Shown: positions 21,895 through 27,919 of the stretch, piece by piece | Layout: every line of letters starts with the position of its first letter | Numbering within the stretch: the first letter of the stretch is position 1 | Assembly (NCBI GenBank): GCA_965222155.1 | Contig: CBDCTH010000012.1 | Span: 1,376,001 to 1,440,000, forward strand | Source: Gammaproteobacteria bacterium | GTDB taxonomy: Bacteria; Pseudomonadota; Gammaproteobacteria; Eutrophobiales; Eutrophobiaceae | Direction of reading: 5' to 3' | DNA: 64,000 bases | The notes under the pieces: generated by a model | What the model saw: only the letters and a program-made list of their open reading frames with translations | The model's database searches: none | What the model was told of the DNA's origin: nothing | Program-made: the position numbers and the translations under genes

Positions 21895-23148
21895 ATGAGA
21901 AATATCGCCACACGTCGGCAGGGATTGACTGGAGAAAATCAAATTGCCTATCGCGGCTGGTGGATTGTGGCGATTGCCGCCGTTGCCATGTCGACCGGGC
22001 CGGGACAGTTTGCATTCGGCGCTCTGGGTCTGTTCATCAAGCCGCTGGGGGAAGAGTTTGGCTGGGACCGCGCCCAGGTGAGCCTTGCTGCGACCTACTT
22101 CACCATCGCTCTTGCATTCAGCATACCTGTCATCGGCCAGTTGGCTGATCGTTCCGGCAGCAGACGGGTGTTATTGCCCTCCATCCTGGTCTTTGCCGCG
22201 TTGCTGGCGTTGCCTGCCTTGCTGGTCGATACCCTGTGGAAACTGTATCTCATTTATATTCTGATGGGCTGCCTGGGCGCCGGCGCGAATGCGCTGCCTT
22301 ATTTACGCACCATAGCGACCTGGTTTGATGCCCGGCGCGGACTGGCAATCGGGATCGCGATGGGCGGCAGCGGGATGGGGTTTGCCTATGTGCCGCCCCT
22401 GGTCCAGTATGTCATTGATACTTACGACTGGCGCGCCGGTTATATCTGCCTGGCGATTTTTACCATGGTTGTGACAATACCCCTGGTGTATTTTTTTCTG
22501 CGTGACGCGCCGGCCGCACAGGGCAGGGTAGATGACCGCTACGGAGACTCCGAAAAATCTTCTCTGAAGCTGCTGCCCGTGCTTAAATCACGGTTGTTGT
22601 GGCAGTTATTCCTGATCTTCTGCCTGTTGTCGTTCGGTCTTTACGGTGTATTGGCACACCTGGCGCCGATGATGTCCGACCGTGGTATGACGATGGCTGA
22701 TGCCGCCCTGGTACAGTCCACGCTGGGTATCTCGATCGTTGTTTCACGTATTTTTGTCGGCTATTTAATCGACCGGTTTGTCGCCACCCGGGTCGCCTTT
22801 GTTTGCTTTTTGATCAGCGCCGGTGGGGTAGGTGTTCTCGCCGCCGGCGCAGTCAATGCGCCGGCTTTTTTAGCCGCTCTTTGCATCGGTCTGAGCCTGG
22901 GTGCTGAGATTGACATGCTGGCCTATCTAACCAGCCGTTACTTCGGCGTGGATAATTTCGGCAAGATATACGGCATCCTGTTTGCCTCCTTCCTTATCGG
23001 CACGTCGCTCGGCCCCTACGCATTCGGCCTGGCTTATGAAACGTATGGCTCATACCGGGAAGTATTGATATCAGCCGTCATTGTCATCATTATCTCGGCC
23101 GTCACTACCCTGTTGCTGCCGTCTTATAAAAGGTCGAAATTATTCTGA
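21895..23148 (+). CDS. MFS transporter
   Basis: About 12 TM segments; GQLADRSGSRR motif A. Confidence 0.9.
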   Translation: MRNIATRRQGLTGENQIAYRGWWIVAIAAVAMSTGPGQFAFGALGLFIKPLGEEFGWDRAQVSLAATYFTIALAFSIPVIGQLADRSGSRRVLLPSILVFAALLALPALLVDTLWKLYLIYILMGCLGAGANALPYLRTIATWFDARRGLAIGIAMGGSGMGFAYVPPLVQYVIDTYDWRAGYICLAIFTMVVTIPLVYFFLRDAPAAQGRVDDRYGDSEKSSLKLLPVLKSRLLWQLFLIFCLLSFGLYGVLAHLAPMMSDRGMTMADAALVQSTLGISIVVSRIFVGYLIDRFVATRVAFVCFLISAGGVGVLAAGAVNAPAFLAALCIGLSLGAEIDMLAYLTSRYFGVDNFGKIYGILFASFLIGTSLGPYAFGLAYETYGSYREVLISAVIVIIISAVTTLLLPSYKRSKLF

Positions 23149-23591
23149 TGTTCCTGGAGGGGGAGTAGAATTCATATGATAACTGTTTGTTATCACTAAA
23201 TAAAATCTGTTGTATTCTGCCTTTCTCAACAATATTTACAACATTTATACCAAAGGGATACAGTTGAATCGCCGCGTGTGCTACGTAGACCCTAGAGCTC
23301 AAGCGAACCTATCTCTGCTGGCCCCTATCGTCAATGTGCCATCGGCTAAGATTGATAAACCGTGATTTTCCTAAACAGTTCGTGGTACAAGAAAGGGAAG
23401 AGGGTCGGCTCGTAACCACTGCTGTATAAGACATATATCCGTAGAAAAAGAAGAAAAAATCACAATACCAATAGAAATTTCAATCAAATGATTTAATTTA
23501 TAGCCATATTGGTTAAAATATTGGTACAATATGTATTGACATCAGCTATTTTATATCATATGATTGGAATGAATGAGGATTTTCTACGAGC

Positions 23592-23948
23592 ATGGTGCTA
23601 GACGAGTCGATAAGGCACCAGTTGGTTCTCCTTGCACGAAGGCGTAAAGCCCGCGTGACTGAGTTTCGTTCTGATCGGCCGAGTGACTGGCGCCCTGGCC
23701 AGGTACGCAATCCAAATGGGGTGCTCGACAGCCACTTCACGGATGCATCAGCCTGGGAGTATATTGCGACCAAGCTTGAGAACGGACACCCTGTCGATGC
23801 CATGCGATTAGATAAGCCACCCGGGGCTAAGGGTTATGTGATGAAGATCGATATTGAGCCTGATATGCCTCAACTCTATGTCAAGCTGCAACTGGGATCC
23901 GGGAAGATCATCGGACGCAGTTTTCACTACTCTGAACGAAAAGACTGA
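23592..23948 (+). CDS. MqsR-like toxin (divergent)
   Basis: C-terminal LYVKL..IIGRSFH resembles the MqsR family; sits directly upstream of an MqsA-like gene. Confidence 0.6.
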   Translation: MVLDESIRHQLVLLARRRKARVTEFRSDRPSDWRPGQVRNPNGVLDSHFTDASAWEYIATKLENGHPVDAMRLDKPPGAKGYVMKIDIEPDMPQLYVKLQLGSGKIIGRSFHYSERKD

Positions 23949-23959
23949 AGAGCCTTGAA

Positions 23960-24520
23960 ATGAATCCAAATCAATCAACAACTGGGCTGCAGACAGTGCA
24001 GCAAGAACTTACGTGTCCACTGTGTGGCAACGCTGGCATAACGACATCATGGAAACCTGACGTATTCAACTATGGGTCCGGCGAATCCATGGCGGAACTG
24101 ACAGTGGATGTTCCTGTGCGCCGATGTGAAGACTGCGACCTCGAATATCTTGATGATGAGGCCGAACGATTGAAACACGGGGCGGTATGCCGGCATCTTG
24201 GCGTCCTGACGCCAGACGAAATTCGGCATATCAGAAAGGGGTTTGGTATGACACAAGCAGAATTTGCTCAGGTAACCGGTATCGGTGTAGCATCACTAAA
24301 CCGCTGGGAGAACGGCCTGACTATCCAGACGCAGGCGTACGACCGGTACCTGCGCCTCTTGACGGCGCACCCGAGCAATATCCGGGATCTTGAGAGGTTT
24401 ACGAACCTCGTCCCTTCCCTACAGTCCGAAGTCCCCTCCGGGAACCGATTCCGCGTCTTGGATGTGACCCAGAATTTACTGAAGGAACAAGAAAGCTTTA
24501 AGCTACGCAAAGCTGCGTGA
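23960..24520 (+). CDS. MqsA-like antitoxin (Zn ribbon + XRE HTH) with a C-terminal extension
   Basis: CPLCG...CEDC, LTPDEIRHIRK.FGMTQAEFA..GIG.ASLNRWENG. Confidence 0.88.
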   Translation: MNPNQSTTGLQTVQQELTCPLCGNAGITTSWKPDVFNYGSGESMAELTVDVPVRRCEDCDLEYLDDEAERLKHGAVCRHLGVLTPDEIRHIRKGFGMTQAEFAQVTGIGVASLNRWENGLTIQTQAYDRYLRLLTAHPSNIRDLERFTNLVPSLQSEVPSGNRFRVLDVTQNLLKEQESFKLRKAA

Positions 24521-24524
24521 CGTC

Positions 24525-26375
24525 ATGTACATCACAACATTTTATTCCTTCAAGGGTGGTGTTGGCCGCACGATGGCCCTGGTCAACGCCGCCGTCAATC
24601 TCGCCCTGGCGGGCCGCCGAGTCCTTGTCGTGGACTTCGATATTGAGGCACCCGGACTTGATACCTTCGACGTTCTGAAGCCGCATAAAGAAGTTCCCGG
24701 GATCATCGATTTCGTCACCCAGTATCTGGGAACCGGGCAAGCTCCGAATATCTCCGACTTTATCGGCGAGTGTCCCCCTATCGGCGAACGAGATGGAAAG
24801 CTGTGGATCATGCCATCAGGCAGAAACGAGACTTATGCTACGACTTTCAATCAGGTTGACTGGGGTGATCTATATGAAAGGCGCGATGGATATTTGCTGT
24901 TTGAAGATATCAGGGGGCAATGGAAACAGACCTTAAAACCGGACTACGTGCTGATTGATTCCCGCACCGGACATACAGATACGAGCGGAATCTGCACTCG
25001 GCAGCTTCCCAATTCTGTTGTAGTCCTGTTCTTTCCGAATGAACAGAACTTGCGGGGCCTGGTCGATGTGGTCAGGGATATTCGGGCCGAGGCTGAGAGT
25101 CCGCGTAAAAAGAATATCGAATTTCACTTTGTGATGTCTAATGTCCCGGATATGGATGATGAAGATCGGATTCTCGAAAGTAAGATCAAGGCTTTTCAGA
25201 ACCAACTCGGTTTCCGGCAGGAACCGATGATTGTACATCGGTACGACAGTCTTTCCCTTCTTAACCAGGTGGTTTTTTCTAAGGACCGCCCGAAAAGCCG
25301 ACTGGCAAAGGAGTACAGCAAGATCGTGGGTGAAATTGCTGTGCGCAACCCGGATGATCGGGATGGAGCACTAGAGTATATCCGAAGGGCAGAGCGACCC
25401 CGAAAATGGATAGACGACGATTCGATACGCAGGCGGCAGGAGATGCTTGACAAGATCAAACGGGCGCACCCGACTGATGGAGAAGTTCTGTTTCGCCTGA
25501 GTGTGCTTAAAGAATCTCATGATGATCTGGAATCTGCGTCCTTACTGTATAACCAGGCAATTGATGCTGGGTACGATAAACCAGAAGCCTATTTAAAACG
25601 CTCAAAATTCAGCGAACAAAACAGCTATCCGGACGGAGCGAGCGAAGATGCCTGGCATGTGCTGAATTTTAAGCAAGTTCCTCCGACTATGGTAAGAGAA
25701 GCAATTTCCCGACTGATGCGTTTGGGGGCATATGACTTGAACGAGGTAGTCAATTCTCCCGCGGTAATGTCGCTGGACCCTGATGACAAGCTCTGGATAG
25801 CCGATCCGTTCGATAGTTCATTAAACGATGTACAGCTTACAATATCCCTCCTTGAACCAATCCTCGATGTCAGCGAACTATCGGAAAGCGATCGCTATTG
25901 CACAAAACATTACCTAGGGTTGTCGTATATGGGGTTAGGAAGATGTTTAGAGGCAGTGGGGATGTTTCGAATCGAGGACGAGGATATAACTGACCTGTAT
26001 ATTGCATATACGTTTAATTACGCAATGGCAATGTGGGGCGCAACCGGGACGATTCATGCTGAGATTTTTCAACGTGCCGTAGAGCTTGATCGCTCTGACC
26101 CTTCAGATGACGTCGGCCCGAACCACCTTCAGTGCATGGCGATTGCCTACTGGGCGGCTGGCGACGATAACGCAGCACTTAACTACGTGGACCAAGCACA
26201 GCGGGCTATTAATGACTTTCGAGGTCGAACGGAGTTTAGTTGCTGGCGTTATCTCCAGGTCGAAGTAAGGTCATTCGATGAGGATCTAGGTGAAATTCGT
26301 ACCTTGATCAAAAAACCTGGTTCTGTAGTGCCTAAATTTATGGCTGTGAAAGGTAACGGATCTGCCGAGGCGTAG
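24525..26375 (+). CDS. ParA/MinD-like ATPase (KGGVGR variant Walker A) with a C-terminal helical/TPR-like region
   Basis: TFYSFKGGVGRT, VDFDIEAPG, DYVLIDSRTG, followed by repeated helical pairs. Confidence 0.85.
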   Translation: MYITTFYSFKGGVGRTMALVNAAVNLALAGRRVLVVDFDIEAPGLDTFDVLKPHKEVPGIIDFVTQYLGTGQAPNISDFIGECPPIGERDGKLWIMPSGRNETYATTFNQVDWGDLYERRDGYLLFEDIRGQWKQTLKPDYVLIDSRTGHTDTSGICTRQLPNSVVVLFFPNEQNLRGLVDVVRDIRAEAESPRKKNIEFHFVMSNVPDMDDEDRILESKIKAFQNQLGFRQEPMIVHRYDSLSLLNQVVFSKDRPKSRLAKEYSKIVGEIAVRNPDDRDGALEYIRRAERPRKWIDDDSIRRRQEMLDKIKRAHPTDGEVLFRLSVLKESHDDLESASLLYNQAIDAGYDKPEAYLKRSKFSEQNSYPDGASEDAWHVLNFKQVPPTMVREAISRLMRLGAYDLNEVVNSPAVMSLDPDDKLWIADPFDSSLNDVQLTISLLEPILDVSELSESDRYCTKHYLGLSYMGLGRCLEAVGMFRIEDEDITDLYIAYTFNYAMAMWGATGTIHAEIFQRAVELDRSDPSDDVGPNHLQCMAIAYWAAGDDNAALNYVDQAQRAINDFRGRTEFSCWRYLQVEVRSFDEDLGEIRTLIKKPGSVVPKFMAVKGNGSAEA

Positions 26376-26551
26376 TTCTGTTCAACCTCGGCATATCGGC
26401 TTAGACAGCACTCTACCGATTGGTGGTGGGGGAAAGAACACTATGAAATGGCTAAGAATTTAGGTGAGGCTATCCTGACTTTAATATCGATGATTACTAA
26501 CATCAATACTTTAGGAGGTTGAAGCTGCTACCTTCAACATATAACAAAAAT

Positions 26552-27873
26552 CATTAGTGTCCCAACGATTAATCGAATAAAATCAACTGGTTAGGTGTAT
26601 CGGGTTGTTTCATATTGTAATCAGTTTTGGTAAGTATATGATCCAGCGGCATTTTCTCAAAGACGGACACGCTCAAAATCTGTAATAGTGTGTAGAGACT
26701 AAGGGGGATATTGAGGCGTTTTTTGATAATGGCGACCAGGACATAGACCGTCATGGCGGTCCAGATTTGGGTTTTGACCGCGTGCTCGGCGGTGCCGTAG
26801 AAGGCGTTGATACGTAGAGGCTGCTTCATCCATTTGAAGAACAGTTCAACCTGCCAACGGCAGCGATACAGTTGGGTAATCGTGTGTGCAGGCAAGGTGA
26901 AGTGGTTAGTGAGGAAGACCAGTTGCCGGGTCGGTCACTTTGACTCTGCGGAGTTTATCCGGGTAGTGTTTGGCCGCGTAGAAGCCGGTGAGGACGACGG
27001 TCTGGTGGCACTGGAGGCCGGTGTGTTTATCGACGGGGCGGGCATAGCGGCGGCGCTAACGCCAGTGGGCCTTGGCCCGGACGATGAAGCAGGCGGCGGC
27101 CTGCTGCAAGGTGTAGCGGCGGCGGCAGTCCAGGTGGCCGCGCTCCATGATGTAGCGGGCGCCGGCTTCGGGCAGTAGCAGGTCGAGGCCCTTGACAGCG
27201 TGCAGTTTGCCGTCAGAGAGGTGGATAAACGTGGGAATACTGCCCCGCAGGTCGAGTAGCGTATGCACTTTGACGGCGCCTTTGGTGGTACGGACGCGGG
27301 CCCAGGGAAAGACGGACAAGCACAGGTCGATGGGGGTGGCATCAAGGGCATAGACGGTGTGTTTGAGTGCGAGGCCGACGTCCTCGTCGAGAGACAGTTG
27401 TCGGGCGCTGTGGATTAAGGCGTGGGCGACGTCGGCGTAGATGCGCCCGTCGCGGGTCGGGTTGGCATGGGCCAAGGTGTTGCATGAGACGGTGCCGCGC
27501 AAGCCCCTGTGGTACAACGTGTGGCGCTGTGCGCGCAGGCCGGCTTCGCTATCCCGCCGGCTCTCCCGGTAGGTGAGTTGAGCGAAGGCCAGACATAGGA
27601 ATTGGTCGAGGCAGGTGACGCGTTTGACTTTGTGGTGGCCGCGATAACGCTGCACACAGCGTCGGAAGGTATGCCTGGGCAGATGGGCCATGACTTGAGA
27701 GACGATGACGTTGCCGGTATACATGGGGCAAAACTCCCTGGTAATGAATAGGAGTGAGCGCAGGACAGGCAGGCGCCGCCGAATTCAAGTCGATGACAGG
27801 CAAAAATGATTTGTTTATTAAGCTATATCAATAAGTTACAACTACCCAGGCCTCAAACGTTGGGACACTAGTG
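26552..27873 (-). mobile_element. IS4-family insertion sequence, decayed
   Basis: Terminal IRs CATTAGTGTCCCAACG (26552-26567) and CGTTGGGACACTAGTG (27858-27873), 15/16 match. No flanking TSD seen. Confidence 0.92.
26569..27724 (-). pseudogene. IS4 transposase (DUF4372 + DDE) with an in-frame stop at 27056 and a frameshift near 26935
   Basis: FAQLTYRES, VYALDAT, LYRCRWQVELFFKW, NQL.LFD. The second catalytic Asp motif reads MERG rather than MDRG. Confidence 0.93.
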
Positions 27874-27919
27874 AAGTCTTATAAAAAGACAGATCATTAA
27901 TCACCAGCGCTGAACGACG

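Follow-up and report, generated by a model that had tools for sequence, protein, structure and literature searches.

A localised tract of A:T>C:G changes in a dead IS4-family element of a gammaproteobacterium

The element and its copies

The window analysed here, a stretch of 64,000 nucleotides from a gammaproteobacterial genome (contig CBDCTH010000012.1, positions 1,376,001 to 1,440,000), carries on its reverse strand, at positions 26552-27873, a 1322-bp insertion sequence (IS) of the IS4 family: a non-functional copy of the type that combines the domains DUF4372 and DDE_Tnp_1. The element bears a dense, localised set of A:T>C:G changes, which is the subject of this report. The genome to which the window belongs (G000; 4.55 Mb, 53% G+C) is assembled in 12 contigs, C1 and C12 below being two of them; G-numbers denote genomes and L-numbers individual element copies or loci. 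The parts of the element are as follows, in window coordinates:

26552..27873, minus strand: IS4-family element, window copy, 1322 bp; target-site duplication absent at this locus
27855..27874, no strand assigned: inverted repeat at the transposase-start end, 20-nt arm
26551..26570, no strand assigned: inverted repeat at the transposase-stop end, 20-nt arm
27056..27724, minus strand: N-terminal piece of the transposase, 222 codons, ending in a premature TAG at 27056-27058 (codon 223)
26569..26895, minus strand: C-terminal remnant open reading frame (ORF), 108 aa, end of the DDE domain
26919..26932, minus strand: point at which 11 bp of the second copy are missing, flanked by direct repeats of 7 bp (CAACTGG); frameshift

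Pfam analysis identified DUF4372 (PF14294) in the 222-aa ORF (E 2e-25, 89.2 bits, cut-off 25) and DDE_Tnp_1 (PF01609) in both ORF pieces (E 2.9e-6, 27.6 bits, cut-off 23; and E 3.2e-12, 47 bits). The two inverted-repeat arms are 90% complementary, and homologues of the protein are named 'IS4 family transposase' by NCBI. The position and the IS4/DUF4372 identity of the element, its intact inverted repeats and an in-frame stop at 27056, all contained in the original prediction made from the sequence, were thereby recovered.

The element shares with the IS4-family elements of this type the domain pair, a 388-codon gene, a length of about 1.33 kb and the terminal inverted repeats. Unlike them, it is dead (TAG and 11-bp deletion), carries about 40 replacements at conserved residues and has no target duplication. 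Neither copy found in the genome is autonomous: the TAG at codon 223 is present in both, and the window copy has the 11-bp deletion as well. In relatives the codon at the position of the premature stop reads TAT, TAC, TTT or TTC, and in the nearest relatives TAT or TAC. The flanks of the window copy are unlike each other, so that no 9-bp target-site duplication is found there; a rearrangement adjacent to the element is the likely reason.

A single near-identical copy was found in G000, L002 (C12:2712586-2713918, 1333 bp), with 99% identity to the window copy. L002 is flanked by the 9-bp duplication GGCGGTTTT and shares the premature TAG, being otherwise open across 388 codons. Two further pairs of the family occur in this genome: L003 and L004, with 75% identity to the element, are broken by a different TAG and lie within separate 9-bp duplications, and L005 and L006, with 71% identity, have an intact 388-aa gene. 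A 9-bp target duplication is thus present in five of the six family copies (L002 and L003-L006). Since L003 and L004 are dead and yet each has its own target duplication, a dead copy was mobilised in that pair too. The start-end inverted repeat of the element begins with 11 nt, CACTAGTGTCC, that recur without change at the end of the intact paralogues L005 and L006. The in-frame TAG of L003 (G000:C1:44040-45205) and L004 (G000:C12:2746695-2747861) stands where relatives have TAC.

The read-through product, with X in place of the stop, was used in a protein search; this yielded solely intact 388-aa transposases with at most 83% identity among the best 120 of 8000 scored; because the search ranks by score, a short broken relative could escape it. 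DNA-level matches were present in 20 of 60 related genomes, the nearest being the intact elements L009 (83%) and L010 (82%). These two grouped with the window copy and L002 at 100% support in a maximum-likelihood tree, in which the common stem of the window copy and L002 was long (0.158), compared with 0.050 for L009 and 0.075 for L010. No mutated relative or intermediate was found among those 120 proteins, nor in genome contigs (one genome per species; best 77% aa identity) or metagenome contigs (best 63%). Searches for the element itself did not recover it in G019, the closest genome, and gave no match exceeding 83% identity among the 60 relatives.

The bases of the element were compared with public data. 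Contigs from four public runs belonging to two studies span the element from end to end, with roughly double the depth of its flanks, and carry the same bases, differing from the window copy at five letters alone, which are exactly the L002 variants; one of these runs is possibly the source of the assembly, and the contigs cannot phase the copies or confirm the 11-bp deletion. Some short-read chemistries are known to make T>G and A>C errors, which would speak for a sequencing or assembly artefact. With the same bases present at two assembly loci, and with independently assembled contigs agreeing in everything except the five variants of L002, we regard an artefact as a negligible prospect. A single contig in one run joins, over window positions 26300-27875 and with no gap reported, the left flank of the window copy to an element with the five L002 variants; this could be a graph-assembly mosaic or a true strain difference.

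A:T>C:G changes and their tract

Three collections supplied 164 other family members, and deviations of the element were counted over its first 222 codons, at the 255 nucleotide columns in which these members show 90% conservation or more. The window copy deviated at 23 of these columns: 20 A:T>C:G, one A:T>G:C and two C:G>T:A. In the 164 other members pooled, 114 of 921 deviations were A:T>C:G (Fisher p 4e-15), and among all 166 sequences the window copy was the strongest deviator at these columns.

For a polarised count, those positions were taken at which the extant relatives of the element share a base from which it differs and at which no fewer than half of six outgroups have that base too. 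The stem leading to the window copy and L002 showed 82 changes, 28 of which were A:T>C:G; the remainder comprised 12 A:T>G:C, one A:T>T:A, six C:G>A:T, 15 C:G>G:C and 20 C:G>T:A. The same family supplied six control branches, on which 21 of 320 changes were A:T>C:G, with 2-6 on each branch (Fisher p 1e-9 versus the stem). All 28 polarised coding A:T>C:G changes were nonsynonymous, 13 at codon position 1 and 15 at position 2, and 17 of the 18 coding C:G>T:A changes on the stem were synonymous. The A:T>C:G changes therefore postdate the end of selection on the gene; they strike codon positions 1 and 2 regardless of amino-acid conservation. Judged from these sequence comparisons, the stem branch is a mixture of ordinary divergence that was subject to selection and A:T>C:G changes that escaped it.

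When L002 was compared with the sites at which L009 and L010 agree, 42 of 150 differences were A:T>C:G, and the remaining 108 were ordinary, mainly synonymous divergence. On the coding strand 24 of the 42 were T>G and 18 A>C, in line with the strand symmetry predicted for the process; 42 of the 553 A/T sites had been hit, for which 'saturated', the term used in the prediction, is too strong. A three-taxon comparison with the distant paralogues had given a mixed result (37 of 147 A:T>C:G) and was abandoned: the paralogues are just 71-75% identical to the element and their divergence swamps the signal, and closer relatives were used for this reason.

In an alignment with 16 relatives, about 40 replacements at invariant or nearly invariant columns were private to the element. 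The alignment bore out the motif changes RESLRDIEAC>RESRRDSEAG, LYHMG>LYHRG, RDWRIYADF>RDGRIYADV, MDRG>MERG, WIKQHLRIK>WMKQPLRIN and GTSENA>GTAEHA. Two further residues listed as changed do not count as derived: many relatives have the K of HAVKGLD, and the intact paralogue L005 shares the P of DATPID. The nonsynonymous third-position changes D194E, H207Q and I303M read as C>G against present relatives. A ratio of about 40 such changes to three exceptions had been proposed; it describes the conserved sites (20 of 23) and fails elsewhere, where the 108 ordinary differences lie. The A:T>C:G signature is real, statistically strong and specific to the lineage of the element.

The element is a pseudogene and is slightly richer in G+C than its relatives (0.569 versus 0.542 and 0.539), as it might be after ordinary decay or after amelioration toward a GC-richer host composition. 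GC pressure would raise A:T>G:C too, and the single A:T>G:C change beside 20 A:T>C:G at the conserved columns excludes both accounts on this count. Third-position composition is, moreover, unshifted, and the 20 A:T>C:G against two C:G>T:A at the conserved columns contrast with six against 42 at four-fold degenerate sites of the chromosome (p 3e-10). Overall we consider decay or amelioration most improbable.

The A:T>C:G changes are not spread evenly over the element, and one further feature is defined by them:

27043..27770, minus strand: A:T>C:G mutation tract, 0.73 kb, element positions 104-831

This tract contains 36 of the 42 changes, that is, 36 of 279 A/T sites inside (about 13%) and six of 274 outside (Fisher p 1e-6); the claim that the whole interior had been altered is contradicted by this confinement. 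The tract runs from 46 nt 5' of the ATG (position 150) to 13 nt beyond the TAG (816-818), coinciding with the residual ORF at element positions 150-818. The other classes of difference were evenly distributed, with 13-23 per 250-bp bin. T>G and A>C changes were interspersed within the element, and a hand count showed no strand clustering (20 runs versus 21.6 expected). Neither a dislocation-type T>G context nor a simple motif was evident by eye in the sequence contexts. A localised, ORF-bounded tract of a single substitution class is unusual.

The two copies differ at five bases, and the window copy shares with L002 41 of the 42 A:T>C:G changes; these have one origin, in an ancestor that preceded the copying of the element. 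The private changes of L002 are two, both to C and both within the tract: an A>C change is clear at position 511, and position 707 is ambiguous, as relatives carry G or A there. The three private changes of the window copy are all transitions.

On the stem of L003 and L004, the sole two A:T>C:G changes match positions 415 and 426 of the element (the codons of Q89P and W93G), and the sequence between these positions is unlike that of the element. The coincidence suggests hotspots, or sites of relaxed constraint.

The chromosome, mutT and other repeats

The chromosomal spectrum was determined from 18.5 kb of orthologous sequence polarised by three outgroups, with G019, which is 93% identical to G000 in the flanking genes, as the closest genome. 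On the branch leading to G000, 25 of 361 changes were A:T>C:G, and at four-fold degenerate sites six of 89 (six A:T>C:G per 231 A/T sites versus 42 C:G>T:A per 1141 G/C sites). The next deeper stem gave 3/48, and the branches of G019, G001, G020 and G018 gave 15/371, 12/233, 12/242 and 17/218, respectively. Spill-over of A:T>C:G changes into the right flank was not seen, the 11 chromosomal changes there not being clustered near the element.

A mutT gene (TIGR00586; 118.5 bits, cut-off 97.9) is present in G000 without stops, and its NUDIX domain was confirmed; 20 of the 23 genomes of the genus have mutT above the cut-off. The match (G000:C12:526041-526406, L037) falls within an open frame of 335 aa, which makes fusion of the NUDIX domain to a further domain probable; comparably long frames are present throughout the genus. 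G001 was considered as a natural mutator, as it has no mutT match above the cut-off, and was discarded because of its ordinary spectrum (12/233).

A genome-wide mutator was ruled out by the terminal and stem chromosomal spectra and by the presence of mutT. The changes are local both in the genome and in the element, which excludes a plain mutT mutator and agrees with the predicted local nature of the signature. The element resembles MutT deficiency in that A:T>C:G is nearly exclusive and affects both strands (20 of 23 conserved columns). It differs from it in that the signature is not genome-wide, mutT is present and the changes lie within a 0.73-kb tract.

General repeat clustering of the genome was too fragmented, and six IS-sized repeat families were hand-picked from 41 clusters. 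Their private changes, pooled, included 149 A:T>C:G among 1462, and seven of the ten copies of a 2.56-kb repeat had 0-3 private changes each. The dead sister elements L003 and L004 showed 2/62.

Outliers were found. In an IS5-like family of 15 copies, the remnant at C12:3195559-3196862 (L239; L256:9560-10863) had 34 A:T>C:G among 105 private changes; the intact copy of the same family had 2/74. Expressed per site, the dose in the remnant (34 of 431 A/T sites) equals that in the IS4-family element (42 of 553), and the remnant sits in a 3.9-kb insertion that is absent from G019. External relatives of this family were present in three of 150 other genomes, too few to be used. A raised A:T>C:G share was also seen in a second IS5-like copy (C12:3368508-3370063; 10/35, with 6/10 in the first 130 nt) and in a fragment of a third family (C12:2605130-2605795; 10/23). 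For the IS1182-like family, a third IS family with three copies only, the private-change count was empty. Examination of other repeats thus gave a mostly negative answer to the idea that mobile DNA at large carries the signature: the six families are ordinary, and the IS5-like remnant, which shows the same enrichment, is an outlier.

These data bear on the mechanism put forward in the original prediction, a genome defence resembling the repeat-induced point mutation (RIP) of fungi, in which a system senses repeated or mobile DNA and mutates its A:T pairs. The presence of the signature in IS-derived DNA and its absence from chromosomal genes, together with the IS5-like copies (34/105 and 10/35) and the third-family fragment, are what such a system might leave. 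Against it, 41 of the 42 changes are common to both copies, which were consequently not mutated independently after duplication; most repeats, including the six families and the 2.56-kb copies, are untouched; the sister ISs are ordinary, intact and dead alike; just part of the element is affected; and no candidate effector gene was identified. We judge a RIP-like defence to be very unlikely, and a mechanism targeted at repeats or mobile DNA finds no support in the shared changes or in the ordinary spectra of the six families. A process of the RIP type acting on every repeat copy is excluded by the single origin and the local nature of the changes.

Fungal RIP consists of C:G>T:A transitions, and each repeat copy is mutated. 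The window element is similar to a RIP product in that a mobile-element copy has undergone dense point mutation and is non-functional. It is unlike one in its substitution class, in the sharing of the changes by its copies, in the untouched state of most repeats and in being affected only in part. A literature search on IS-targeted or RIP-like point mutation in bacteria returned no such system among the papers listed.

Diversity-generating retroelements also produce localised, base-specific hypermutation. With a reverse transcriptase and a template repeat, these systems change the adenines of a single strand to any base. In the present element T>G changes (24) are no rarer than A>C changes (18), and the product base does not vary. 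A template repeat is absent, the only other copy in G000 being 99% identical; a reverse transcriptase was not searched for.

A 13-kb duplicate (G000:C1:6108-19105 and C12:21262-34260) is 99.7% identical between its two copies, with 43 differences. The first 10.8 kb contains three of these; the other 40 are found within 2.1 kb of a nested IS. A fresh burst of mutation in the duplicate was considered and rejected, the variants being largely shared among the IS copies. Four copies of the nested IS show all three 2:2 site patterns (36, 29 and 22 sites), which indicates gene conversion among them.

Origin of the tract and the surrounding locus

The explanation that we tentatively prefer, while giving it somewhat less than an even chance, is that a dead IS4-family element underwent locally raised mutagenesis of the MutT type over its promoter-proximal 0.73 kb, without loss of mutT. 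We infer from the A:T>C:G spectrum that the chemistry is that of MutT deficiency: 8-oxo-dGTP (8-oxo-2'-deoxyguanosine triphosphate) would be misincorporated opposite template A and then fixed as C:G. The raised rate would have acted locally, on a stretch free of selection. Its source might be repeated resynthesis of the repair type tied to expression of the transposase stub, by transcription-coupled repair or by gap filling with a low-fidelity polymerase; expression-tied resynthesis is favoured because the tract matches the residual ORF. Polarity of the Rho type past the premature stop may have shielded the downstream part. Later the dead element would have been mobilised in trans, giving L002 with its clean 9-bp duplication, and the helper was likely the intact transposase of a related element that has the same first 11 nt at its ends. 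L002 appears to have continued to gain changes to C within the tract (511 clear, 707 ambiguous), which counts for a local rate, as do the sharp bounds of the tract.

A precedent for such a process exists in the transcription-biased mutagenesis of Bacillus subtilis that depends on Mfd, MutY and PolI (PMC4962003), and a second in the transcription-associated mutagenesis of the same species (PMC10318952). As far as the available passages of these reports go, the likeness consists in a bias to transcribed DNA, oxidative damage and repair synthesis. The coincidence of the tract in the element with the residual ORF may be a parallel. The differences are that these passages contain no such spectrum or tract and that the organism is another one.

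Several observations weigh against the locally raised rate. The passages of PMC4962003 and PMC10318952 give no mutation spectrum. A scan for the sigma-70 consensus returned no promoter-like site near the start of the tract. L003 and L004 also have a premature TAG and show 2/62 A:T>C:G, and the fit between the end of the tract and the stop codon is known from one element. The strand bias is weak (24 T>G, 18 A>C) and strand clustering is absent. Transcription-linked damage is usually strand-biased, and we know of no mechanism that gives a tract so dense and composed of A:T>C:G alone in a wild-type bacterium. In addition, the unrelated IS5-like remnant has an equal dose per site, which is what a shared genome-wide episode elsewhere would predict for both elements.

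The main rival is import from a mutator background, which we hold to be a real possibility and, at the same time, distinctly less probable. The element would have decayed neutrally in a long-lived mutT-deficient relative, plasmid host or sub-lineage, and would then have been transferred and mobilised in trans; its 3' 0.5 kb and first 100 bp would in addition have been restored by gene conversion from a clean sibling. Loss of MutT is the single cause established for spectra that are almost purely A:T>C:G, and the purity of 20 in 23 fits it. The failure to find the element in G019 or in the 60 relatives, the position of the window copy within an insertion that G019 lacks, the flanks of L002, which have no counterpart in G019, and the equal dose in the IS5-like remnant, itself in an insertion absent from G019, are all consistent with import. 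Recombination among IS copies, which the added conversion step requires, occurs in G000, as the 2:2 patterns of the nested IS show.

On the other side, the changes are so non-uniform along the element (p 1e-6) that this conversion event becomes necessary, and no clean sibling is present in G000. No mutated relative or intermediate was met in the genome and metagenome contigs, nor a full-length protein above 83% identity among the best 120. All chromosomal branches of the genus examined (G000, G019, G001, G020 and G018) are ordinary. L002 gained changes to C after a duplication that apparently took place within the present chromosome, and the change of about 8-13% of A/T sites would require a very long-lived mutator.

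A wider version of the locally raised rate can be formulated: where genes of mobile elements have been broken and a stub is still expressed, an expression-linked process would produce A:T>C:G changes about 10-50 times as fast as in the chromosome. We offer it as a speculation with a low probability of being correct. If real, the process would show itself both in this element and in one or more unrelated IS remnants. It would be an undescribed bacterial counterpart of clustered hypermutation, and its effect might be that of a one-way ratchet, preventing dead transposases from reviving.

Bacterial mutation is usually taken to be approximately uniform along the chromosome and biased toward A:T. 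A locally raised rate would be an unrecognised source of clustered, signature-specific mutation in bacteria and would offer a new way to read the history of pseudogenes. Should the tract have been imported instead, it would be a rare fossil of a long-lived natural mutator of the mutT type, kept solely in dispensable mobile DNA.

The element lies at the right edge of an insertion of about 4.7 kb in the 3' end of a gene for a transporter of the major facilitator superfamily (window 23124-27900). The insertion, which is the one absent from G019, is bounded by the direct repeat TCTTATAAAA (23125-23134 and 27878-27887) and contains two further genes:

23960-24520: MqsA-like gene with a helix-turn-helix domain
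24525-26375: 616-aa gene of ParA/CbiA-type P-loop plus tetratricopeptide repeats

A 'cobB remnant' undergoing ordinary decay had been described among the neighbours of the element. The gene meant is probably the 616-aa ORF at 24525-26375, and in that case it is no remnant: it is intact and open throughout, with an N-terminal match to the CobQ/CobB/MinD/ParA nucleotide-binding domain (PF01656, E 9e-8).

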